This document shows positions 25,101 through 54,164 of a stretch of DNA of 64,000 nucleotides, in pieces. The translations under genes were made by a program, and so were the position numbers. This stretch comes from a virus. Each line of letters starts with the position of its first letter. Positions within the stretch are counted from its first letter, which is position 1. Below the pieces are notes generated by a model. That model was given only the letters and a program-made list of their open reading frames with translations. It made no database searches and was not told where the DNA came from. The DNA is taken from the IMG/VR virus record IMGVR_UViG_3300031857_000124, positions 4,496 through 68,495 of that record. One strand, written 5' to 3'.

Positions 25101-27049
25101 ATGGCGCATGGGATTTTAATTTTGCGTACAAGAAAAGAGCGGGGAAAGATTTCGTTTATGAATTTGTAGACAATGACGGCAACACTTATGTGTTTGATAA
25201 GATTAATGATATTCAAGACGAGATAGAGAAACAAAAGAAAAAAACATACGAAACAAATAATAGATTTTTATTACCAGATGAAAAAGGAAACATATCAAGG
25301 CCAACAAAAGGCTTATCGACCGCTTGGTACGATACAGAACTCGTCGATGCAGAAAAATATTTCGAATTCCTCAGAAGCAAAGCAAAGGAAATCATTCCAG
25401 CACCTGATGTCGTTGAAGATCAAGGCGTCGTAATTGAAAAGCCGAAATCTGAAAAGATTTCTAAGGGAAAGAAACCGACTGGCCAGCCATCCAAAGGCAT
25501 CAAACGCGGATCATACATCCCCAAAACACAACCACTAGCCGGCGCTCCAACCCCTCAAGGAGCGACCGGACCTATAGAAGAGCTTGTTAATGTGGCTGAG
25601 AGTTATGCTAAAAAGTTTAACATCCCTTACACCCGCCAGGCGGAATATGTTCCGATAGACGAAGATTTTTCAAAAGAACTTGCTGATGCCTACGAGGCGA
25701 TGAAGCACGACCCAAGCAACCCAAAGGTTAAAGAGAGTTATGAGGATTTGATTCGTCAAACAAAGGATCAGTACGATGCCCTTGTGGATGCTGGATATGA
25801 GTTTACATTTTTTGACAGCAAAACCGATCCGTACAAGGGTAATCCGGTAGACGCAATGCGTGACCTGAGGGCCAATAAGAAAATGGCTGTTTATGGAACG
25901 TATGATGGATACGGAACTGGAAGTGAGTTAAATATTGGTCTTAAAGATCCAGCAGGAGGGCCAGACTTAAAGGTGAGTGACGTATTAAAGGCTGTTAAGG
26001 ATGCTGGAGGAGAGGTTGTAAACAGCTCTGTTTACGAATCAAATACAGAGCCTACCTTAGTTGTTAAACTTAAAACAAAACTTGACGATAAGTCGGCAGA
26101 CAAATTATCAAGCGATCTTGGTCAGGAGTCTATTGCCCAAAGGTTTGATGACGAAACAGGAAAACTTTATGGCCCTCAGGCCGAAAAGTGGGGTGACTTC
26201 AATCCTGAGTTTTTTGTAACACTGGACGGAAGAAGGGCTTCCGACACCTCAAATCCTATGCTTGCTGATACTGGACTTCAATGGCCTGATCAAAACGGGG
26301 TGATGCACAAGGTTACGGCTAATGACTTGTTCCGCGCAGTACACGACGCGTTTGGTCATGGATTAGAAGGGGCTGGGTTTAGAGCGAGGGGGGAGGAGAA
26401 TGCATGGCAAGGTCATGTGCGTTTGTTTGTTGGTCCGGCCGTTGGAGCCATAACCACCGAAACTCGCGGTCAGAATAGTTGGTTGAACTACGGTCCTTAT
26501 GGAGAAAAGAACAGGAAGGCCAAATTAGAGGACACTGTTTTTGCAGAACAGAAAACAGGGCTGATGCCTGAGTGGACGTGGACAGAAAATGTGGCTCCCG
26601 CTATGGATGAAGCTCCGCCAGAAACTGGCAAGCCAACCGCCCAACAATCCACCAAGATCCCCCGCACCCAGGCACAGGTTCGTGAGGCCGCTGAAAACGC
26701 AATAGACGCGGTAGAAGAAGCGATTGCTGACGGCATGAGTCCACAGCAGGCCATTGATGAAAACATCTCAAACCAGGAATGGTACGGTGATTTGAGTGCT
26801 GCCCAGAAGGAACAGCTGAATGAAATACTTCAAGACGAGTTCGGGGCCACTGCAAGTGAACCTAAACTACAGAACAACGCCCAGCGCGTAGCTGACCTGT
26901 GGGAGAAGGGTGGAAAAGAAGCCAAGGCAGAGATCAAGAACATTTTGGAGACTGACCCTGAACTTTCGTACATTTACAACAATTTCCCGAAGATAACTAA
27001 GCAGTTAGAAGAGCAGGGATTGTTGACTAAAACAGAGAATTGTCCATGA
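19130..27049 (+). CDS. Giant multidomain (polyvalent-type) ejection/cargo protein
   Basis: 2639 aa with a G/A-rich hydrophobic segment, zincin-like FHEGIH motif, several globular modules and low-complexity linkers. Confidence 0.7.
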   Translation: MAIPVSKKYYEYLKSKNLDVPPTYESFQKTLSNQESARKYFSYLQSKKSQGIDVPESFESFYKTLSLKGAQPEDGAASGQESNAPQGQQPQPSAPSFGQGIVDRMKQSQIQVPLKTDLQKKQEIKRPFEDITYKKEELPSETTQALVPEQTSFEISQANKAQSQIRQGKLPSNPKYVNEQVVQEVEDIRKEKGMPTLEESARRTMRRAELSDAISPFEDELKDYMAYSGDDTLTDDDYTIASNKDIADLYQESEDQPVSTIFLETTEEGKKNREKKDLVFKNVMDSYWRYMSKKYPDGYSSNKQRYDEIKKRISDKEGVSKGDEQFVLSIEDRAKGLFNAKRAEQAMAIENRIVENSNLVGSVDIQKYQEQTGDIFKQAEVLNTQLQKGEIAREFYDSQMESLKQKEKSISTRLGITEDVKKRVNQLQQDYNIYGKVLMGMSASGQAFADEFEKYSGIKEEFEQKKRNEEIAKKFWSTDFGVIEAPMKTWGAAYEFMRSAGAAGMSMAISSAASLVRMGAQVGPAKFLTSDDKYDISDRLFDKIMGLNANLIAESFEPETNSVVQKLSSMAGSGFGSMAMFMMGGEAAAAAKAPAWLGTFIPGFLSAEADYYNELIQTGKYSSSEASVVSSALAIPQATIELAVPDNLFKTQARASIRQAIRGNGPLGKAVFESLGAYTRDAFIKEGLLEEGGAYILDNISKRAANAIGQSKYFDTQFNNEEFVNSVLGGAIVKGGVDFIKGPQKKSQTRESVEYEIAERGQKIIDSHTSESTVGQLKETLKKPMETLESLRVHPNWDSLDDTKKAHVFSISQDIKTLEDSDVQDPVTEAQIQRLKSEREQILNLGTNGIDARTVGVSTAPQRVMVDGQQANFFINEDGDYELEYNNGKSVVIEKGEGAAEKIRSMGIKTDTGDVGEMVKENQNTLITPSLEKGATVDYNGKNAVVNSYKEKGGKVVYLNITTEDGKNLQIRDGAQGPGQQLLNNLNNLPYDQENQTRVSGEVGVGQEPVTTQPIETTSGEAPATSGVLQTSDEAAQRVNDILSDIYFNVPGGRSGGLLDEGFGNAPAALDRANAEGGNQYSAHGMGKTTIGKAFSDLFNLLTKGIDPTRGGGRLYTAPLSGGQQGAGAGTGTASGNAYMDGPFTLVANRGVGSITDVSQIGGIIVNDGLVNARPELLDALRQAFPDIVFESTSNADLLVRQLNARSESQQAAQTEAAPQAQEEIDSVRQRINAIEAARREGRILEDEKPNELKELKAREKELLSQETKPSGQKLTVGSKIQWDVFGNESMNEWTVAEETTTRGGQPAVRLTRFIEQGVAEGGGIAGYTQEHVVPIVDLQAKPTTEKATEGTKPEPQKKQPLRKRVASLFETSEGEKSAEKVGEFLKDANIDVEVLDPKDFEEKGSQRNFEGDADGVFLVDNNTGKIYLNREKIKTAEGKVIAFHEGIHPVINIIRNTNPKQYQAIVQGLKAEAAKNSAVAQAAADVAASEYYQEQGPLAIEDETVVETMARVAAGDIDIDTFEPTFREKFIDFMNKLAKMLGLGPIAVNSPRVEVKRLADQLSKALNEGGKISDIVGKKNVGKFQNTISDGQYSIDARIADKGVQVPRSEKLPLKIVASKEEDVMRRINELLDKYPNALTDKEQWKELMSRVFPITVDGEVFIPAFPEGLARMAGSVQETLKEINKVSDEQRKLASEGLKKTKEIGELYKQGKMDEVDTGLYFLWNIMSIGISPYPQESGFLQAVNGGVDKYIKLAAAGKFNENTLKEYLNWVDGVLPKGTPGAGSKSNLNSFGKSFLSKAAQEIESGEFEGKTKLQALHEILSDRKTPTNELRRKWQANMSAMQFNNKIFDFILLTTGRSDLFVTDRVRVDHFWDGNNFKKKRGLKESTSLYDGSDLTYGAAAGAGFTKILSDVPGLVFNELANRTMTPIVEKAYKQIGVKDYPEVGRFHWETWVAASSQEVSHGSIDAIVQRKEKGEIQDAGIRQGKYGAWDFNFAYKKRAGKDFVYEFVDNDGNTYVFDKINDIQDEIEKQKKKTYETNNRFLLPDEKGNISRPTKGLSTAWYDTELVDAEKYFEFLRSKAKEIIPAPDVVEDQGVVIEKPKSEKISKGKKPTGQPSKGIKRGSYIPKTQPLAGAPTPQGATGPIEELVNVAESYAKKFNIPYTRQAEYVPIDEDFSKELADAYEAMKHDPSNPKVKESYEDLIRQTKDQYDALVDAGYEFTFFDSKTDPYKGNPVDAMRDLRANKKMAVYGTYDGYGTGSELNIGLKDPAGGPDLKVSDVLKAVKDAGGEVVNSSVYESNTEPTLVVKLKTKLDDKSADKLSSDLGQESIAQRFDDETGKLYGPQAEKWGDFNPEFFVTLDGRRASDTSNPMLADTGLQWPDQNGVMHKVTANDLFRAVHDAFGHGLEGAGFRARGEENAWQGHVRLFVGPAVGAITTETRGQNSWLNYGPYGEKNRKAKLEDTVFAEQKTGLMPEWTWTENVAPAMDEAPPETGKPTAQQSTKIPRTQAQVREAAENAIDAVEEAIADGMSPQQAIDENISNQEWYGDLSAAQKEQLNEILQDEFGATASEPKLQNNAQRVADLWEKGGKEAKAEIKNILETDPELSYIYNNFPKITKQLEEQGLLTKTENCP

Positions 27050-27552
27050 TGACACCTAATAAACTCGATAAGAAAGCCGTTGACCTACTCATCCCGCGAA
27101 TGAAGGATGAGTACAACGCATTTTACTTCTACCGTGCCGCCAGTAACTGGTGTCAGGGTGTTGGATTCTTCCAAGCCGCCAAGTTCTTTGCTGCCGAGTC
27201 GCAGGATGAGCTTGAACACGCAAAGAAGATTGAGGATTATATCACCGACTGGAATGTAATCCCAGAACTACCCACCGTGGCTCGTCCACAGCTTGAGTTC
27301 TCCAGCATCGTAGAGGTTTTGGAAGAGGCTTACAAGATCGAGTACGACTTGTACGAGGCTTACGAGGAGACTTCGAAGAAACTTTTCGAGATTGACCTGT
27401 GCGTGTTTGACTTTTTACAACCACTGCGGTTGATACAGAACAAGTCTGTTGCTGAGTACAGCGACAAACTAAACCTGCTCGAAGGAGTAGAGGGTACTGA
27501 CAAGTTCAAAGCACTGTTATTGGAAGAAAAGTTATTCCCCGTAAATGGCTAA
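27046..27552 (+). CDS. ftn: Ferritin-like protein
   Basis: DEYNAFYFY, GFFQAAKFF..ESQDELEHAKK, AYKIE and LIQ match non-haem ferritin ferroxidase motifs. Confidence 0.85.
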   Translation: MMTPNKLDKKAVDLLIPRMKDEYNAFYFYRAASNWCQGVGFFQAAKFFAAESQDELEHAKKIEDYITDWNVIPELPTVARPQLEFSSIVEVLEEAYKIEYDLYEAYEETSKKLFEIDLCVFDFLQPLRLIQNKSVAEYSDKLNLLEGVEGTDKFKALLLEEKLFPVNG

Positions 27553-36936: not shown

Positions 36937-37093
36937 AGTACAAATTTACTCAAAATTTGCATACCCCAAGTCTTCCCACACAGGAGATTCGTTCATTGTT
37001 TTTTTTCTTGCAAATTTAATGGTATTCCCGCAGGTATTCTTGCAAGAAGTTCACTACCTTTGATGTAGCACATTCACAGTGCGTATAATTAAT

Positions 37094-37609
37094 ATGCCAA
37101 GACGGAACTCAAGAACGCGGTCTAACACGGTAAGGAAGGCCGGCCCCAAGAAGGGGAGCGGTGGGAAAATAAGATCCACACAAAAGATTGTTGATGGCAT
37201 ACAGTTCAAGTCAATGCTTGAGGTGTTCACTTACAGAAAGCTGCTTGAGTATGAACTCAGGTTTGAGTATGAAAAGAAACGGTTCGTGGTTATGCCTGGG
37301 TTTGACTACCCTGAGTGTTCGTGGGAAAGCAAACCAAGTGGGGACTACGAGGACAAGGGGCATGGAAGGGTGAGGGACATTACCTACACCCCGGACTTTG
37401 TGGGGTATGATTTGCACGGCAATATGCAGTGGGTTATAGAGTGCAAGGGCTTCGCCAACGAGCGCTTCCCCAACACGTGGAAGCTGTTTAAGCAGACCCT
37501 TATCCGGGAGGGGAATCCTGTTCCGCTGTACCTCCCAAAAAACCAAAAGCAGGTGCTTGAATCGATTGAGAAAATATTGCTCTTAGGCAATCCAACCCCT
37601 CTCCCTTGA
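37094..37609 (+). CDS. PD-(D/E)xK endonuclease, endonuclease I/resolvase-like
   Basis: FKSMLE, YTPDF and IECKG motifs. Confidence 0.75.
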   Translation: MPRRNSRTRSNTVRKAGPKKGSGGKIRSTQKIVDGIQFKSMLEVFTYRKLLEYELRFEYEKKRFVVMPGFDYPECSWESKPSGDYEDKGHGRVRDITYTPDFVGYDLHGNMQWVIECKGFANERFPNTWKLFKQTLIREGNPVPLYLPKNQKQVLESIEKILLLGNPTPLP

Positions 37610-37954
37610 TTCTTTAGGGTGTCGTTCTACATACTCGTGGCAGTTCCTACACAGGGCCATCCATGTTTTAACGTTTAAGTAGTTCTGACCCCTCCTGTGT
37701 ACGTGGTGTACGTCAGTGGACCTCAAGAAGCATCCTTGCAGATTTAGTTTGCACTGCGGGTGGTTTTTGAGGAACACATCACGAAGTGCGTAGTACGCCC
37801 TGTCTTCTTTCTTCTTCTTTTCGCTTACCTTGTTTATCCTGTTTTTAGTTCCATGGGCGATCTTGCACTCCGTGTTACCACAGGTGACTTCCATGGTGCT
37901 GTACTTTGGGGTAAATGGTGCTTTGCACACCCTACACAACTTTGCTTTTTTCAT
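37583..37954 (-). CDS. HNH-type nuclease (NinG-like N-terminus)
   Basis: CRVC...C...C zinc motif, DVHH and LCRNCH. Confidence 0.7.
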   Translation of the reverse strand: MKKAKLCRVCKAPFTPKYSTMEVTCGNTECKIAHGTKNRINKVSEKKKKEDRAYYALRDVFLKNHPQCKLNLQGCFLRSTDVHHVHRRGQNYLNVKTWMALCRNCHEYVERHPKESRERGWIA

Positions 37955-39183
37955 AGGTGTTTCGGCAAAGAAACTTATTCATCTTTAGTGAATGGGAGGA
38001 ATTGCCGCCTCAAAGTTAAATTAAATTTTGGTATTTCAAACGAATGAACTATATTTGTTCCGTGAAACTGACATTGCAGATAAAATTGCTGCCTGATAAT
38101 AAACAGGCAAATGCTCTCAAAGATACTTTGAAGGAGTGTAATACCGCCTGTAATGAAATTTCCAAACGGTGTTTTGAGAAAAAGATTTGGGGGCAATATA
38201 GAATCCATCACGAAGTTTACTATTCTGTAAAATCCTCTTTCAATCTTTCCTCTCAAATGGTTGTAAGATGTATTTCTAAGGTTGCTGACAGCTACAAGTT
38301 GGATAAGAAGGTTCAACGAATATTTAAGCAGTTTGGCAGCATTGCTTATGATAGCAGGATTCTTACCTATAAACAATCCGAAGTATCTATTTGGACTGTT
38401 GAAGGTAGATTGAAAATTCCTTTTGTTTGCCACAACCCCCAATACATTCCATACATTAAAGGCGAAGCGGATTTGGTTTACAAGAAGGGTAAATTTTACA
38501 TTTTTCAAACTGTTGAAGTTCCCGAAGAAGATATAAAAGATATTGAGGAATTTATCGGTTGCGATTTTGGACAAACAGATATTTGCACTCTGTCCGATGG
38601 CACTAATTTTAATTCTGAACAACTTAAAAAGATTCGTAAAAAATATTCTAAAGTAAGAGCTTCGGTTCAATCCAAAGGCACTAAAGGAAGCAAGAAACTT
38701 CTGAAACGGCTTGGCGGGAGAGAACGAAGATTCGCTACAATTTCTAACCATACAGTTAGTAAACAGATAGTAGCTAAAGCCAAAGAAGAAAATAAAGGCA
38801 TAGCTATTGAGGATTTGAGTAAAATTAGATTTACCGCAAAGCCAAAAAGCAAAGCACAAAAGACAGAACTTAACCGTTGGAGCTTCTATCAGCTTCGTCG
38901 ATTTCTGACATACAAAGCGTTGCTTAATGGCATTAAACTTGCGGTAATTCCACCTGCTTATACTTCTCAAACTTGCTCTGTTTGTTTGCATATTGGTAAA
39001 AGAGTAGCGAAAAAATTTACTTGTGAAAACTGCGGAAATATTTCTGATGCAGACGAAAACGCTGCTAAGAATATTTCTGCATGGGGTGTCGCTGTAAATA
39101 CGCCCGAAAAGAATAATATGTTTTGCTCTCTGCATTCGTGTTAATTCTTAAGCCTATTGGTCTTTAGCCAATGGGTAGTTTAC
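37955..39183 (+). mobile_element. IS200/IS605-family, TnpB-only (IS1341-like) element
   Basis: Related subterminal hairpins with TCTTTAG loops at 37974-37996 and 39153-39175, AT-rich interior. Removing it restores a TGA-A-ATG gene junction. Confidence 0.85.
38044..39144 (+). CDS. tnpB: RNA-guided endonuclease TnpB
   Basis: RuvC I GCDFG, RuvC II AIEDL, zinc finger TSQTCSVC...CENC, RuvC III DADENAAKN. Catalytic D-E-D is intact. Confidence 0.93.
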   Translation: MNYICSVKLTLQIKLLPDNKQANALKDTLKECNTACNEISKRCFEKKIWGQYRIHHEVYYSVKSSFNLSSQMVVRCISKVADSYKLDKKVQRIFKQFGSIAYDSRILTYKQSEVSIWTVEGRLKIPFVCHNPQYIPYIKGEADLVYKKGKFYIFQTVEVPEEDIKDIEEFIGCDFGQTDICTLSDGTNFNSEQLKKIRKKYSKVRASVQSKGTKGSKKLLKRLGGRERRFATISNHTVSKQIVAKAKEENKGIAIEDLSKIRFTAKPKSKAQKTELNRWSFYQLRRFLTYKALLNGIKLAVIPPAYTSQTCSVCLHIGKRVAKKFTCENCGNISDADENAAKNISAWGVAVNTPEKNNMFCSLHSC

Positions 39184-39200
39184 TTCAGTTTTTTGGAAAT
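39030..39200 (+). ncRNA. Putative omega/reRNA (boundaries approximate)
   Basis: Expected overlap with the tnpB 3' end and right-end hairpin. The guide would begin at 39184. Confidence 0.5.
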
Positions 39201-39616
39201 TCAGTTCCTCCCCCCACAGGCTCTGGCTCATTAATTTTTTTGAAGTGCCTTGCGTAAATGGCGTTGGTGTACTCTTCCGCCCATGTGACCACGTCTTCTT
39301 CGTGGTTGTCTACATCCCAACTGTGTATCAGTAAAGACATATGGATCATTTCGTGGTTAATCAGGGTAACATCCCGGTAATCACCGTGCAGTGCGGATCT
39401 GTTAATAAATACAAAGGGCAAAGGATCGGTATTCAACAGGGTGTCCTTAGGATCGTAGTTGGCAAAACCATCTATGTAGGTACCCCCCTCAGCTATCCTG
39501 TTAATACATTCGATCTTGCTGACCCCGTGCATCTCCTGGACACTGTAGTAATCAAACAGTTCTACGGCATTATTCCCAATGAGTAGAACAAACTGTGCAT
39601 AGTATATCACTTCCAT
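39185..39616 (-). CDS. HExxH metallopeptidase-like protein
   Basis: INHEMIH followed by a downstream EE. Confidence 0.55.
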   Translation of the reverse strand: MEVIYYAQFVLLIGNNAVELFDYYSVQEMHGVSKIECINRIAEGGTYIDGFANYDPKDTLLNTDPLPFVFINRSALHGDYRDVTLINHEMIHMSLLIHSWDVDNHEEDVVTWAEEYTNAIYARHFKKINEPEPVGGGTEFPKN

Positions 39617-39770
39617 TCTGTCAAGTTATATGTTTACTTTTTATAGCCCTATACTGAAATTTATATCCATCTCCACTCTGTCTATCTTGTATGAATTTAA
39701 TTCTTCCTATCTACTGTTTTTGGATATAGGAGGAAGGTTTTATTCGCCTATATGTAAGTTAGCGGTAATG

Positions 39771-40100
39771 CTACCACGCATCCATAACGACATCGCAACT
39801 GTCAAACTTTTGTTTAGTCCAATCTATTGAGCCATTATTATCTACCCATACCGCTTTTTGTTTACAATAAATCTTTATACCATCAACTCTCAACTGATGA
39901 ACCACATCTTCCATTTCCTCATCACTCATATTATTTGCAGGTTTTATACTTTCCTTTACAAAAGTTTGAAGTTGCTTTTGTTCTTCGCAGTTACACACAT
40001 ATCTACTGCGTTGTTTGCTTCCACATCCTGAAAGCACTACCGCTAACAACAAACTTGCAAAAGCAAGGGTTAATCGGTTAATTGAAAATCTGTTTTTCAT
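39771..40100 (-). CDS. Lipoprotein (cassette gene)
   Basis: MKNRFSINRLTLAFASLLLAVVLSG-C lipobox signal, A-rich start context. Confidence 0.7.
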   Translation of the reverse strand: MKNRFSINRLTLAFASLLLAVVLSGCGSKQRSRYVCNCEEQKQLQTFVKESIKPANNMSDEEMEDVVHQLRVDGIKIYCKQKAVWVDNNGSIDWTKQKFDSCDVVMDAW

Positions 40101-40173
40101 TTTGATATTTGTTTTTAAGTTAAAAATTTGTACTTCTAAATCCTTTCCTTCGCAAGTTTGCAAAACGTTATAA
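40041..40173. repeat. attC-like palindromic site (133 bp)
   Basis: CGCTAAC..AAACTTGC...GCAAGTTT-GCAAAAC-GTTATAA. Confidence 0.7.
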
Positions 40174-40608
40174 GTAATTTTTTACAAATTCCGACATTTC
40201 AACCAAAGAGGCATCTCTCCTTCCTGTATTTGCAAATACTGTAGTTAAAACAATGTTATCTTTTTTATATCCAATACTATTATCTAATCTATCTAAACTT
40301 GGTTTTCTCAATTTGTCTTTTAATGTAAAGTCTATAGGTATATTTAACCAATAACACATACCGTTTTGTTTGTTTTTTAAGTGTTCTAAAAAAGCACCAT
40401 TTATTTTATCATCAACATCGTGTACTTTCTTATTCCTACCATCTGGCAATTTTTGATTTTTAGCCTTCCTTGATGATAATGTTGACATTAACCTATATTT
40501 CCAATTTGAATTATAACAAACTTTACATTGCCCTCTTTGTTTGCCATTGCCTCTACTTGAATATTCAGCTAACGGTTTTAATACTTTACACTCTATACAT
40601 TCTTTCAT
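40168..40608 (-). CDS. HNH/endonuclease VII-like protein (cassette gene)
   Basis: CIEC...CKVC zinc motif and PSLDRLDNSIGYKKDNIVL. Confidence 0.7.
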   Translation of the reverse strand: MKECIECKVLKPLAEYSSRGNGKQRGQCKVCYNSNWKYRLMSTLSSRKAKNQKLPDGRNKKVHDVDDKINGAFLEHLKNKQNGMCYWLNIPIDFTLKDKLRKPSLDRLDNSIGYKKDNIVLTTVFANTGRRDASLVEMSEFVKNYL

Positions 40609-40630
40609 AATTATATCAATTTAAAACTAC

Positions 40631-40685
40631 TTATAACAGCACATTGGCGGCATTAAAACGACCGCCAATCTGCAAAACGTTAGCT
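40631..40685. repeat. attC-like palindromic site (55 bp)
   Basis: TTATAAC-AGCAC-ATTGGCGG...CCGCCAAT-CTGCAAAAC-GTTAGCT. Confidence 0.7.
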
Positions 40686-40731
40686 GCTATTTTGGGACAA
40701 CCCCTCAACTTTTCTTGTTGATTTAGATCAA

Positions 40732-41049
40732 TCAAAACGGCACCCCGTCGCTTTCGTAGACATACTCTCCCACAAGCTCTCTTCTGCCGGAATTATTGAT
40801 CTTGGTTAATATACTGTTTTCTGAGTCTGTTTCGTACCAGAACGCTACCGGCTCTCCCTGACTTTCATCCGGGTCAGGTAGCAATGTAATATTTTCCGGG
40901 ATGTAGACATACGACTTCCCGGCCTTTCTGCAGGCCAAGGCTTCCTTGCAAACAACTGTCAGGCTGTTCCCGGGAGGAGGAGTCCCTCCGCCAGAAAAGA
41001 TAGCCATGATGTCCTTGGTTTTGATTATTGGGACCGTGATTTTTGTCAT
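40732..41049 (-). CDS. Hypothetical protein
   Basis: Coupled ORF in the leftward operon. Confidence 0.6.
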   Translation of the reverse strand: MTKITVPIIKTKDIMAIFSGGGTPPPGNSLTVVCKEALACRKAGKSYVYIPENITLLPDPDESQGEPVAFWYETDSENSILTKINNSGRRELVGEYVYESDGVPF

Positions 41050-41555
41050 ACGATGATCTTGATTTTGCTGACGTGATCCATTATTGGATACCCCATATTG
41101 GTCAGGATTTCAAACACCTGATCGGCAACAGCCCGAAAAGCTTTTTCGACACTGTACTTCTTCACAAAGGTTTTGTTCTCCACATGACCGATGGTGCAGT
41201 ACGCTTTCTTGTACTTGAATTTGTCCCCGAGTTTTTGTTGCGAGAACTTGGGGTACAGTTTTCTCATGGACCATATTGCAATGTGACGAGCCCTGACGTA
41301 ATTCGCCTCATTGGTTTTTCCATCGGTGATGTCTTCCTGCGGAATAAGGGTCACCAGACTGACTGCTGATAGCACGTCTGCCCATACGTTCATTGCCGGG
41401 ATCTTTGATACGTCCTCGATTCTTTTCTGCACGATGTCGATCTGTTTGTATATCTCGAATTCGTACTCGGACTTTGCGATCTTCGCAAGGTCTGTCAACA
41501 TTTCCATTCTGTGGTTGGGATGGCAGAAGGCCACCATTCTTTCGATCTCTCTCAT
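41046..41555 (-). CDS. DnaA domain IV-like HTH protein (paralog 1)
   Basis: RARHIAIWSMRK..FSQQKLG..F..YCTIGH resembles the DnaA C-terminal domain. Confidence 0.6.
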   Translation of the reverse strand: MREIERMVAFCHPNHRMEMLTDLAKIAKSEYEFEIYKQIDIVQKRIEDVSKIPAMNVWADVLSAVSLVTLIPQEDITDGKTNEANYVRARHIAIWSMRKLYPKFSQQKLGDKFKYKKAYCTIGHVENKTFVKKYSVEKAFRAVADQVFEILTNMGYPIMDHVSKIKIIV

Positions 41556-41556
41556 C

Positions 41557-41805
41557 TTATTCGATTGTTTTGTTGATTACCATTGATTTTGGAACCACGA
41601 TCCCATTGGACAGCATAAGCTCCCCGCGCATAGGGTAGGCTCTCCACACGGACAGCGTGTCTTTGTAGATCACGACTCTTTTGCCAACAAGAGGCTCCAT
41701 GAATTCTCGTTCTGTCTTGATGCCATTTGAGATGTGATGGCAGATGAATATGACCCCTGCGAATATCATTCCGATTGTCAAAAATGCGATAAGTTTGAGT
41801 TTCAT
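41557..41805 (-). CDS. Small membrane-anchored protein
   Basis: N-terminal TM segment. Confidence 0.55.
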   Translation of the reverse strand: MKLKLIAFLTIGMIFAGVIFICHHISNGIKTEREFMEPLVGKRVVIYKDTLSVWRAYPMRGELMLSNGIVVPKSMVINKTIE

Positions 41806-41816
41806 ATTTGTGTGTT

Positions 41817-42077
41817 TTAATTTTCCATTTCAATCCAGTTCACCCGGTCCTTCTTAAGGCATTCGAGGATCGTGTTTCTCAGGCTGCGGGCGTTCGCTTC
41901 TCCCATGATTGCGACATCACTTGGATGCAGAAGAATGTCGTCTACGACCGTCCCGTTCATTTGCCTGAGAAGCTCGAAGTCCCACTCACACTTTTCTTCT
42001 ATGCCGTCAAAGCAAGCTATAACCTTGCCCTTGTGGTAGTCAGCCTTTTTGTAGGCTCTTTTATTCAGTTGTATCAT
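41817..42077 (-). CDS. Hypothetical protein
   Basis: ORF tiled within the operon. Confidence 0.55.
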   Translation of the reverse strand: MIQLNKRAYKKADYHKGKVIACFDGIEEKCEWDFELLRQMNGTVVDDILLHPSDVAIMGEANARSLRNTILECLKKDRVNWIEMEN

Positions 42078-42080
42078 GTG

Positions 42081-42590
42081 TTAAATTATGATGTGCATTT
42101 TATTTACGTGAATAAGTATTGAGTAGCCCTTGGACTCAAGTATTTCGCAGGCCTGTAGCATGAGCGTTCTGAAGGATTTCTCTGTAGCGTAGAGGCTTGG
42201 CACGGACTTGTTCTCAACATGGCTGACGGTGCAGTGCTTTCGTGGGTGGTCAAACATATTCCCCAAGTTGGTCTGCGAGAAGTGCGGGGCCAGCTTCCTC
42301 ATAATCCAAATCGCGATGTGTCTTGGCCTTGCGTACTCCCTCTCGCGAGAGTGTGCCGACGTGATTAGATCCACAGGGACAAAGGTCACCTCACTGACCG
42401 CAGACAGTATGTCGTTCCACACGTCTTTGGGGGACATGGATTCGGGGGGCGTCGGGGCCTGTTGATCAGCATTAATCTGCCGATAAATTTCAAACTCAAA
42501 TTCGGGCTTGGCAACTTTCGCAAGTGTTGCCAGCATCTCGGCCCTGTGCGGGTATCGGCAAAAGGCTACTAAAGTTTCAATCTCGTTCAT
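42081..42590 (-). CDS. DnaA domain IV-like HTH protein (paralog 2)
   Basis: SREREYARPRHIAIWIMRK..FSQTNLG..F..RKHCTVSH, aligns end to end with 41046-41555. Confidence 0.65.
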   Translation of the reverse strand: MNEIETLVAFCRYPHRAEMLATLAKVAKPEFEFEIYRQINADQQAPTPPESMSPKDVWNDILSAVSEVTFVPVDLITSAHSREREYARPRHIAIWIMRKLAPHFSQTNLGNMFDHPRKHCTVSHVENKSVPSLYATEKSFRTLMLQACEILESKGYSILIHVNKMHIII

Positions 42591-42689
42591 TTTTTTAGTG
42601 TTTAAAGTGTTTGTTTTTTAGGGTTGTACATTGCTGCGTAACGTTATGACTTTACAATTTTGTTTGTTTTGTCAAGGTTTTACTTGACT

Positions 42690-53843: not shown

Positions 53844-54164
53844 TTAAATTTCGTTCTTCCCCTCAACCCCGCGCTTGATTCTGTTTGCGGTACGGGCGTT
53901 CTGCCAGTGGATAGCCTCTTCAATCTTTGTGATTGTCAAGGCATTTTCTCTGCACGGGAATGCATCGTTAAGGCTTTCGAATAAACACTTTACGTACTCG
54001 AGCATATCTGTTGCTTGAACTCCGTTTACCCCGACCTCGCTGACGGGGTCTGACTGGATTGTAAACTTTACAACTGGGGCAACCCCCCTCACATCCTCTG
54101 TGTTTTCGAGGGTGATGAATGGTGTTTCGCCGAACTTCAGCAGGGCCTTTTCTACGTGTCTCAT
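53844..54164 (-). CDS. Acb2/Tad1-like helical hairpin protein
   Basis: GVNGVQ..CRENALTITKIEEAIHW..R..RGVEG. Confidence 0.6.
   Translation of the reverse strand: MRHVEKALLKFGETPFITLENTEDVRGVAPVVKFTIQSDPVSEVGVNGVQATDMLEYVKCLFESLNDAFPCRENALTITKIEEAIHWQNARTANRIKRGVEGKNEI

Follow-up and report, generated by a model that had tools for sequence, protein, structure and literature searches.

Integron cassettes are assumed to be promoterless units in which the attC site trails the open reading frame (ORF) and which depend on an enzyme with a special domain. In attC sites, the extrahelical bases lie on the side opposite to the crossover core. Sedentary chromosomal integrons also contain inverted cassettes, for example those for toxin-antitoxin systems, which have their own promoters. 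In T4-type phages, promoter-early stem-loop (PeSL) modules reportedly flank novel ORFs (Arbiol et al. 2010) and are reported to act via homologous recombination between the repeats.

Sites of the attC type have also been found in phages. A survey of 10,705 genomes reported 17 integrase-less attC clusters (CALINs) in phages, among them virulent ones such as the flavobacterial Polaribacter phage P12002L; the clusters were treated as ordinary attC sites that IntI1 can use, and one site of P12002L recombined with IntI1. Methyltransferases were frequent CALIN cargo (Qi et al. 2023, PMC9892861). The text consulted, differing in this from the present study, makes no mention of a phage-borne Xer-like recombinase or of sites that overlap start codons. 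Our site finder detected sites resembling those described below in P12002L. In the paper on the Freya phages, the integrase is taken as a sign of lysogeny, and the words “integron” and “cassette” do not occur in the main text. Insertion of cassettes outside att sites by the integron integrase is reported for IntI and bacterial genomes in a preprint (bioRxiv 10.1101/2022.09.11.507474). In the literature, we found no description of integron-like arrays with a compact Xer-like recombinase in flavobacterial phages, nor of recombination sites that enclose start codons.

The window, as we call the whole stretch of DNA analysed, comprises 64,000 nt of virus record IMGVR_UViG_3300031857_000124, which is 68,495 nt long and 100% complete according to CheckV. 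Large structural genes occupy the plus strand up to about 35 kb, and the minus strand encodes replication and recombination functions (a BT4734-like primase, two DnaA-C-like proteins, NinB, RNase H and a Cas4-like exonuclease). The G+C content falls from about 46% to 36–39% across 38.0–40.7 kb, an island that contains the features listed in Table 1. A BLAST search with positions 37000–42600 against 50,697 phage records gave no match, and relatives of the backbone, sought in viral contigs via the flanking 105-aa and 169-aa proteins, were not found, the empty insertion place thus being unseen. Ends of an IS200/IS605 element belonging to the neighbouring TnpB gene were dropped as a candidate, because the palindromic sites are not adjacent to TnpB and obey the cassette chain rule set out below. 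Flanks of a homing endonuclease were dropped as well, since EndoVII homologues in loci L013–L022 lack palindromes and the sites flank many unrelated genes.

Table 1. Features of the low-G+C island (positions of the window; a slash within a sequence marks a break or crossover point, here and in the text)
Feature	Position	Strand	Remarks
TnpB gene	38044–39144	+	inside the low-G+C island
143-aa ORF			within the island at 38.0–40.7 kb
Array end CCGCTAAC/TTACATATAGGCGA	39744–39765	-	T after AAC instead of the G of the family; no hairpin beyond
Putative cassette 2	39758–40166	-	G + site B body + GTTAGCGG + remainder of lipoprotein gene + terminal core CCGCTAAC
109-aa lipoprotein gene (MKNRFSINRLTLAFASLLLAVVLSGC...)	39771–40100	-	ATG and first 18 codons within site B
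Site B	40040–40174	-	long class, imperfect palindrome, 135 nt with cores; 32 homologous sites with covarying arms
Site B right (3') arm	40050–40071	-	inside the signal-peptide codons LTLAFASL
Site B left (5') arm	40139–40160	-	non-coding, 5' of the lipoprotein start; compensatory with the coding arm at 5 pairs
Putative cassette 1	40167–40678	-	G + site A body + GTTATAAG + leader + EndoVII-like gene + terminal core CTTATAAC
146-aa endonuclease VII / HNH-like gene	40168–40608	-	cargo of cassette 1; phrog_1035 endonuclease VII, E 9.3e-16
Site A	40630–40686	-	short class, 57 nt with 8-nt cores; heads the EndoVII-like gene

Site B reads, on the minus strand from 40174 to 40040, CTTATAAC-G-TTTT-left arm-67-nt loop-right arm-TT-GTTAGCGG. 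The arms are 22 nt each, 82% complementary and spaced by 67 nt; GCAAACTTGCGAAGGAAAGG follows the TTTT on the left side, and CCCTTGCTTTTGCAAGTTTG precedes the TT on the right side. The loop contains an A-rich leader and the ATG at 40100–40098, and the site also takes in the codons for MKNRFSINRLTLAFASLL, so that the first-pass annotation was right to place the A-rich region, the start and the leader codons within the palindrome. The codons for LAVVLSGC follow, the frame over the 3' core being TTG TTG TTA GCG GTA GTG CTT TCA GGA TGT (LLLAVVLSGC), and the lipobox is completed outside the palindrome, as had also been noted, with its Cys falling beyond it. By its sequence, the protein has the n-region, h-region and Cys-ending lipobox (MKNRFSINRLTLAFASLLLAVVLSG/C) of a lipoprotein and is predicted to be processed as one. 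The ATG at 40100 is supported as the probable start by homologues that begin with MKN or MKT at the same place. The mature part has homologues in 7 viral loci, where it is joined to a different signal peptide in each case, and the closest (L002, 67% identity) starts with MKNKLSINN and has no evident palindrome. The lipoprotein matched no Pfam family, and the weak “lipoprotein” look-alikes in a protein atlas (best score 0.83) provide a lead only.

The predicted folding of the minus strand of site B (-17.0 kcal/mol, z -1.97) is marginal, 7 of 200 shuffles being equally good. Site B is nevertheless not a chance palindrome: a scan for TAAC..GTTA with a paired stem found one site in the window vs one match in 20 shuffled windows combined, an exact 11-mer (GCAAAACGTTA) is common to sites A and B, the arms covary (see below), and the homologues have the same start. 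Inspection of the loop by eye revealed no convincing promoter motif of the Bacteroidetes type, and a sigma-70 promoter scan remained at shuffle level (7 found vs 5.5 expected). A small terminator-like hairpin is present inside the right arm.

Site A has the layout CAGCTAAC-G-TTTT-stem-loop CGTTTTAATG-stem-T-GTTATAAG, and folding of its minus strand (-12.4 kcal/mol, z -3.87) was matched by none of 200 shuffles. An identical body occurs in six further loci (L042, L107, L061, L087, L129, L139). The gene behind it matched no Pfam family and has homologues in 23 loci. It is bracketed by the 8-nt complement of GTTATAAG and CTTATAAC, a pair that covaries to GTTATAGG and CCTATAAC in L010; a second 8-nt complement connects GTTAGCGG (40047–40040) with CCGCTAAC (39765–39758), which is located directly 3' of the lipoprotein stop codon. 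The boundaries of cassette 1 are derived from left-core breakpoints in other loci. Upstream of the array, the backbone ends with ...CAGCTAAC (40686–40679), and the terminal core CCGCTAAC is followed by TTACATATAGG... This array end appears to resemble, weakly, the junction TAAC/TAT.ATATA found upstream of the recombinase gene of relatives, and it might mark a secondary place of insertion or be a remnant. Sites A and B are two co-oriented attC-type sites within a few kb with no integrase nearby, and thus represent a CALIN. No match to PF00589 was found at E <= 1 in the whole 68.5-kb record, with all controls detected. As this phage has no recombinase gene, its two cassettes, carrying the EndoVII-like gene and the lipoprotein, are orphans.

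Loci with homologues of the EndoVII-like or lipoprotein genes carry rows of similar sites, all co-oriented with the genes; as loci were collected by patterns and homologues of this phage site family, the counts given here describe an enriched sample. A short-site pattern (TAACG, stem, loop CGTTTTAATG, stem, GTT) was found in at least 119 stretches of viral contigs, among these 151 matches with 141 unique sites. Identical short bodies bear many different outer core letters on both sides. In 53 aligned short sites, where the pattern fixed the loop and the cores and left the stems free, 85.7% of the stem cells are paired, compared with 66.0% in shuffles and 31–48% with the partners slid, and there are 187 double-sided changes vs 71.5 in shuffles, with none of 500 shuffles as high. 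For the subfamily of site B (32 homologous sites from other contigs), 95.5% of the arm cells pair (41–51% with the partners slid), and the 37 double-sided changes (8.4 in shuffles) were likewise reached by none of 500 shuffles. The compensatory changes at the five arm pairs include letters left free by the search pattern, so the non-coding arm tracks codon changes in the signal peptide; three G-T pairs are invariant. A site finder was set to accept sites with AACG and GTT, a stem score no lower than 9 and an unpaired stretch that is longer on the 5' side. With the duplicate loci L011 and L012 as well as L001 and L151 excluded, it yielded 261 oriented sites that form three classes by length, with 95 at 40–50 nt, 51 at 70–90 nt and 95 at 110–130 nt. 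Folding of the gene-sense strand is better than that of its complement in 292 out of 322 unique sites, equal in 10 and worse in 20. The short-site pattern was also found in at least 120 stretches of bacterial assemblies, mostly with Bacteroidota titles; 56 of the 120 listed pass a crude stem check, which is not a count of true sites.

Among 166 neighbouring site pairs (at most 3 kb apart), 112 have a 3' core that is perfectly reverse-complementary over 8 nt to the 5' core of the next site, as compared with 620 of 19,912 random site pairs (3%). This core chaining, which occurs twice in the window (GTTATAAG with CTTATAAC, GTTAGCGG with CCGCTAAC), is a hallmark of integron cassettes; alone, it cannot assign a site to either neighbouring gene. 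Three loci (L035, L069, L132) share an upstream gene with 96% identity and diverge exactly at TATAAC/G, after which there are three different site bodies and three different genes. L004 and L005 have a lipoprotein homologue and the preceding long site in common and differ in their upstream genes, the homology beginning at CTAAC/GT and ending at GCACAAC/G. The window and L009 are unrelated after the EndoVII stop codon, which overlaps CTTATAAC, and the EndoVII homologues of L009 (82% identity) and L010 (66%) are both followed by unrelated long sites. When 344 sites with full flanks from 229 loci were compared, pairs alike only in the upstream flank shared the site body in none of 8 cases and pairs alike in both flanks did so in all 24, while the three pairs alike only in the downstream flank had the same body once, an intermediate one once (0.70 identity) and a different one once. 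One methyltransferase unit is preceded by differing short bodies in L085 and L140 and by a long body with a leader in L233.

A natural indel is provided by the cultured Polaribacter phages Freya_1 (43,978 nt) and Freya_10 (48,920 nt), which are collinear except for one block with an offset of 4,939 nt (4.94 kb) and 12 annotated CDS. The block starts with G and a site body directly after TTTACAAC and ends with TTGCTAAC; it is followed by the junction ACCCCTATAAC... and then the integrase gene, an AAC core bounding both ends. As the breakpoints fall at the 5' core TAAC/G, the site heads its own gene. Taken together with the folding of the gene-sense strand, they indicate a crossover at the 5' core on that strand, so that a cassette consists of site body, 3' core, gene and terminal core. 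Of two alternatives raised in the first-pass annotation, this favours the one where the gene is inverted within its cassette and carries the start in its own site; the body accompanying the upstream gene in none of the 8 pairs and the unrelated long sites behind EndoVII homologues point in the same direction.

Of five array-bearing records, the two large incomplete ones possess a recombinase of 265–268 aa right at the array end, and no such recombinase was found in the three complete or near-complete phages. In 80 viral loci gathered through a 268-aa recombinase, 296 sites are co-oriented and upstream of the recombinase gene vs 5 elsewhere (on the same strand 3 downstream; on the other strand 2 upstream and none downstream). 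At least one site is present in 59 and at least two in 53 of the 64 loci with 1.5 kb or more of upstream sequence, and any site in 3 of the 76 loci with as much downstream sequence. The conserved junction TAAC/TAT.ATATA... lies immediately 5' of the recombinase gene. The enzyme is Xer-like, scoring 184–194 bits on an XerA-type model (cut-off 220) and, in two stretches, 151–159 bits on the integron-integrase model TIGR02249 (cut-off 265), than which it is about 50 residues shorter. An integron integrase with the IntI-specific segment was not found beside the array, either in the window or in the relatives. Viewed from the recombinase gene, the array has the geometry of an integron, with the genes turned round. 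The hairpin sites, the AAC and GTT cores, core chaining and the arrays beside a tyrosine recombinase in relatives all uphold the original description of site B as attC-like in its anatomy and its context.

We consider it likely, from sequence comparison, that site B serves as the recombination site for a cassette with a single gene, within a gene-capture system of Bacteroidota phages that resembles integrons. What was observed directly is the anatomy of the sites, their grouping into a family, the covariation of their stems, the chaining of their cores, their orientation relative to the recombinase gene and the position of breakpoints at the 5' core. Each site would form a hairpin of the gene-sense strand (5'-nnnnTAAC/G, a 4–6-nt bulge, stem, loop, stem, 1–3 nt, GTTAnnnn-3') at the 5' end of its gene, with the crossover at TAAC/G of the 5' core. 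A cassette would extend from the G after one AAC through the next AAC, its 3' core and terminal core being 8-nt complements, and arrays would grow at an attI-like junction just 5' of a compact Xer/IntI-related tyrosine recombinase gene, with recombination probably taking place on folded single strands. Since the genes of the cassettes are read towards the recombinase gene, one promoter shared at the place of insertion could not serve them, so that signals for expression would have to be located within the site or directly behind it. The loop of the long class (about 120 nt) would hold an A-rich leader, the start codon and 14–30 codons, and the 3' arm would be coding; in the window, the coding arm would correspond to the n- and h-regions of the lipoprotein signal peptide, which may tolerate a constraint at the DNA level. 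The two orphan cassettes of the window presumably arrived in trans, from a co-infecting phage or from an element of the host.

Start codons inside a site are not peculiar to the window. An inside start was defined as an ATG-led ORF that begins within the site and reads at least 40 codons past the core, and 63 of 102 long sites enclose one, so that the window shows what is usual for this class; among short sites 11 of 99 have such a start, and among mid-length sites 1 of 60. The inside starts lie 16–93 nt before the 3' core, with two at 16 nt and 61 of 63 at 41–93 nt, and in the other long sites the ORF starts downstream (35), starts upstream (1) or is missing (3). The departure from the usual order of attC after ORF, which had been pointed out for site B, thus applies to the family: the phage sites head genes and the majority of the long ones enclose starts. 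The codon junction TTG/TTA at the core, pointed out at the same time, is real in the window and fails as a general rule, because the frame across the 3' core of the 63 sites is mixed (GTT as a codon in 46, xxG/TTA in 14, xGT/TAx in 3).

A pattern based on the coding arm of site B occurs in 83 viral stretches, from which 32 full homologues were aligned. They encode MKT[KR]TSIYHRTFAFAYVLL or MKN.xSINRLTLAFASLL, beyond which shared leader the ends of the signal peptides, the lipoboxes and the mature parts are diverse; a lipobox was recognised in 38 of 59 leader ORFs of the subfamily by a regular expression of our own. In four loci (L167, L193, L194, L219), the stretch between the 5' arm and the 3' core is highly identical to the window, with a drop in identity after it; in L192, the high identity persists about 60 nt farther past the 3' core. 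Leader-bearing bodies that are almost identical stand before mature domains unrelated to one another, with the similarity frequently ending at the 3' core, and one such body is of no use where it stands, before a methyltransferase gene. This provides a grain of truth for the other alternative of the first-pass annotation, according to which the site is a portable export leader that fuses to whichever cassette comes next. As a mechanism this second alternative is not supported, since there is no fixed frame across the core and since homologous lipoprotein genes keep the leader without a complementary upstream arm (L159, L163/L202, L182/L204, L196, L210, L217, L218; a rough ungapped measure, with at most 13/20), which is what the first-pass annotation had named as grounds for refutation. 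As near-identical leader bodies stand before unrelated domains and identity drops at or just after the 3' core, some exchange at the 3' core or conversion of bodies occurs. We read these data as suggesting that the signal peptide belongs to the gene, that the site is built around it, and that bodies are sometimes exchanged or converted. It is possible, if rather doubtful, that the long site doubles as a portable 5' expression module providing leader, start codon and N-terminal peptide (here an export signal), which is grafted through cassette genesis or 3'-core exchange. If so, one DNA element would serve both gene capture and the translation or export of the captured cargo, and portable front ends would offer phages a natural way of forming new fusion genes.

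Several observations do not sit easily with the cassette model that we favour. The phage of the window and three other complete or near-complete array phages are devoid of the recombinase, and the contigs of the four sequencing runs that were compared contain no joint, circular form or spanning piece. The unpaired bases lie on the side of the crossover core, opposite to the extrahelical bases of attC. The body is also not strictly tied to its downstream gene, as seen from the one same, one intermediate and one different body, from the methyltransferase unit and from the leader bodies with identity falling at or after the 3' core. These latter points would be accommodated if both cores were exchange points or if bodies were often converted, the stable unit being a gene within 8-nt inverted cores and the body, with any leader, being semi-independent. 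In all 8 pairs with a common upstream gene, the bodies that follow it differ, and a common downstream gene can likewise be preceded by differing bodies (one or two of three pairs; L085/L140/L233); identical short bodies have many outer core letters on both sides; and metagenome contigs with the body of site A become unlike the window at both cores (40632/40633 and 40682–40687). However, sedentary integrons show homogeneous bodies and variable outer cores with a single crossover point, so that variable outer cores need not imply two exchange points; the only clean natural indel examined, that of the Freya phages, uses the 5' core at both ends; and the folding asymmetry (292 of 322 sites) argues for one recombinogenic strand. 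We regard exchange at both cores as unlikely, if worth keeping in mind.

It is improbable that site B has the classical orientation, i.e. that it is the attC of the EndoVII cassette with the crossover at G/TTAGCGG, and that the lipoprotein gene has no start of its own and was put in frame with a portable leader by its landing. What speaks for this is that bodies like that of site B precede different mature domains with identity falling at the 3' core, that families of N-termini encoded by sites, for example ...ENLNISDV/, continue into unrelated sequences, and that leader ORFs are cut short before other cargo, after 19 codons at a TAA in the core preceding the methyltransferase unit in L233 and after 29 codons in L043. 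It is contradicted by the unrelated long sites behind the EndoVII homologues of L009 and L010, by the body accompanying the upstream gene in 0 of 8 pairs, by the Freya block, which has a site body at its start and an AAC core at its end, and by the mixed frames and the leaders that lack an upstream arm. Still less credible, and in our opinion very improbable, is that the hairpins between phage genes act at the RNA level or in regulation, for instance as terminators, processing sites or translational operators comparable to the stem-loop modules of T4-type phages, and that they are shuffled by ordinary homologous recombination with no dedicated recombinase. Structure is indeed conserved on the transcribed strand with G-U-compatible pairs kept, the start codon in the loop makes a translational effect plausible, and the hairpin in the right arm of site B looks like a terminator. 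Such elements, however, leave unexplained the 8-nt chaining of successive cores, the near-exclusive placement upstream of the tyrosine recombinase gene (296 vs 5) and insertion exactly at AAC/, and an Rfam scan of 37900–41000 at E <= 10 gave no family match (best E 1.1, all hits being far below gathering scores and at chance level).

The likeness of the proposed phage system to integrons comprises imperfect palindromes with ...AAC and GTT... cores and covarying variable stems, for which single-strand folding may be assumed, a content of mostly one gene per unit, an outer core that complements the end of the next cassette, arrays that appear to grow at a junction beside a tyrosine recombinase gene, and a site length of 45–135 nt, which overlaps the range of attC. 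The cores TTATAAC and GTTAGCG of the window have an AAC and a GTT that pair, but fit the attC consensus RYYYAAC...GTTRRRY only in part. The differences concern the recombinase of the relatives, which at 265–268 aa stays below the integron-integrase cut-off; the cassette genes, which point towards the recombinase and are headed rather than trailed by the site; the unpaired bulge, which adjoins the crossover core; the start codon and N-terminal codons within long sites; and the occurrence in lytic-looking genomes, that of the window being without any recombinase. The integron layout, with an ORF before attC that is read away from the integrase from a common promoter, was not found, and the phage system is not a canonical integron. 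The inverted cassettes of sedentary integrons are similar in that the gene runs against the usual direction of the array and has its own expression signals, but there they are an exception and the ORF does not overlap attC, whereas in the phage system this orientation is the rule and 63 of 102 long sites enclose the start of the ORF. Like PeSL modules, the phage sites are repeated stem-loops between small accessory phage genes and are tied to modular shuffling; unlike these, they have chained cores and break at a fixed dinucleotide step, and relatives possess a dedicated recombinase. Insertion outside att sites, as reported in the above preprint (10.1101/2022.09.11.507474), would explain orphan cassettes at a non-array place without an enzyme, but it is known for IntI in bacteria and not for the compact recombinase or for phages.

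Folded sites and chained cores are here found with reversed gene polarity, a simpler recombinase and sites that overlap coding sequence, and because of this overlap DNA structure and signal peptide constrain each other. If our interpretation is correct, it widens the definition of a gene-capture platform and would explain why standard detectors have reported few of them in Bacteroidota and their phages. The dual-use sequence offers a testable case where recombination should be separable from translation and export by synonymous mutations of the arm. The data further suggest that nucleases, methyltransferases and small lipoproteins move among marine and freshwater flavobacterial phages, including those without the enzyme.

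Half or more of the sampled words of 39600–40800 were found in 16 public sequencing runs, and RNA runs contained a fraction of at most 0.10 of the sampled words of this region. In one run (X13), the part 38002–39838 is uncovered, which is no evidence of a cassette-free variant. A variant contig occurring in two runs (X12, X14) spans 39783–40161 and differs from the window by 11 letters and 2 gaps, all of which fall within 40073–40122, i.e. in the loop and the first codons, while the arms and the remaining gene are identical.

The window's array ends at a sequence that bears a weak likeness to the TAAC|TAT.ATATA junction, which in related loci lies directly 5' of the gene for the recombinase, and this end may represent an insertion site that lacks a recombinase. 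The two cassettes, which carry the EndoVII-like and lipoprotein genes, adjoin a gene related to TnpB/Cas12f, all within one low-GC island. Placed after the array end is an ORF for which no Pfam family was found; it has an HEMIH motif and possibly encodes a small metallopeptidase.

Features at and around the array end and elsewhere in the window
Feature	Position	Strand	Details
Array end	39744-39765	-	reads CCGCTAAC|TTACATATAGG
TnpB/Cas12f-like gene	38044-39144	+	PF07282, E 2.7e-22; phrog_506, E 2.1e-44
386-aa ORF	37975-39135		antisense to TnpB/Cas12f-like gene
143-aa ORF	39185-39616	-	HEMIH motif
169-aa protein	41046-41555	-	DnaA C-terminal helix-turn-helix domain, PF08299
169-aa protein, paralogue	42081-42590	-	same domain, PF08299
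Acb2/Tad1 hairpin-domain match	53844-54164	-	E 1e-4, below cut-off
Ferritin-like gene	27040-27552	+	PF00210, E 3.3e-20

The lipoprotein cassette also occurs on a variant contig (public metagenome runs X12 and X14), whose changes relative to the window are confined to the loop (40073-40122) of site B, the long palindromic site that encloses the gene start: 11 letters and 2 gaps differ, with no change in either arm or in the gene body.

Long sites in seven other viral loci (L043, L048, L062, L083, L086, L088, L099) encode families of N-terminal peptides that recur ahead of unrelated sequences, examples being M..E.EYLKAKQIVQEYEKQLNISDV and MKDL.HI.RFNESEENLNISDV, and in these sites the ending ...LNISDV is encoded by the arm. 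A conserved non-coding stretch of ~90 nt, reading GTTAGCAG TAGTACGG ... CTTTTCTTTTTTGTG, was observed 3' of the 3' core at L036:1057, L119:714 and L077:9978 (locus:position). The sites that precede it belong to different classes and the genes behind it also differ; it may constitute an extra regulatory or RNA module present in some cassettes.

Among the cultured Polaribacter phages Freya_1 to Freya_10, record lengths (43,978, 44,820, 45,722, 46,194, 48,018, 48,613 and 48,920 nt) differ by cassette-sized steps; base-by-base comparison within the series was of Freya_1 with Freya_10 only.

Elsewhere in the window, the two paralogues with a DnaA C-terminal domain are spaced by ~500 nt, and the weak Acb2/Tad1-like match could possibly correspond to an anti-defence sponge. 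The ferritin-like gene sits amid large structural genes.
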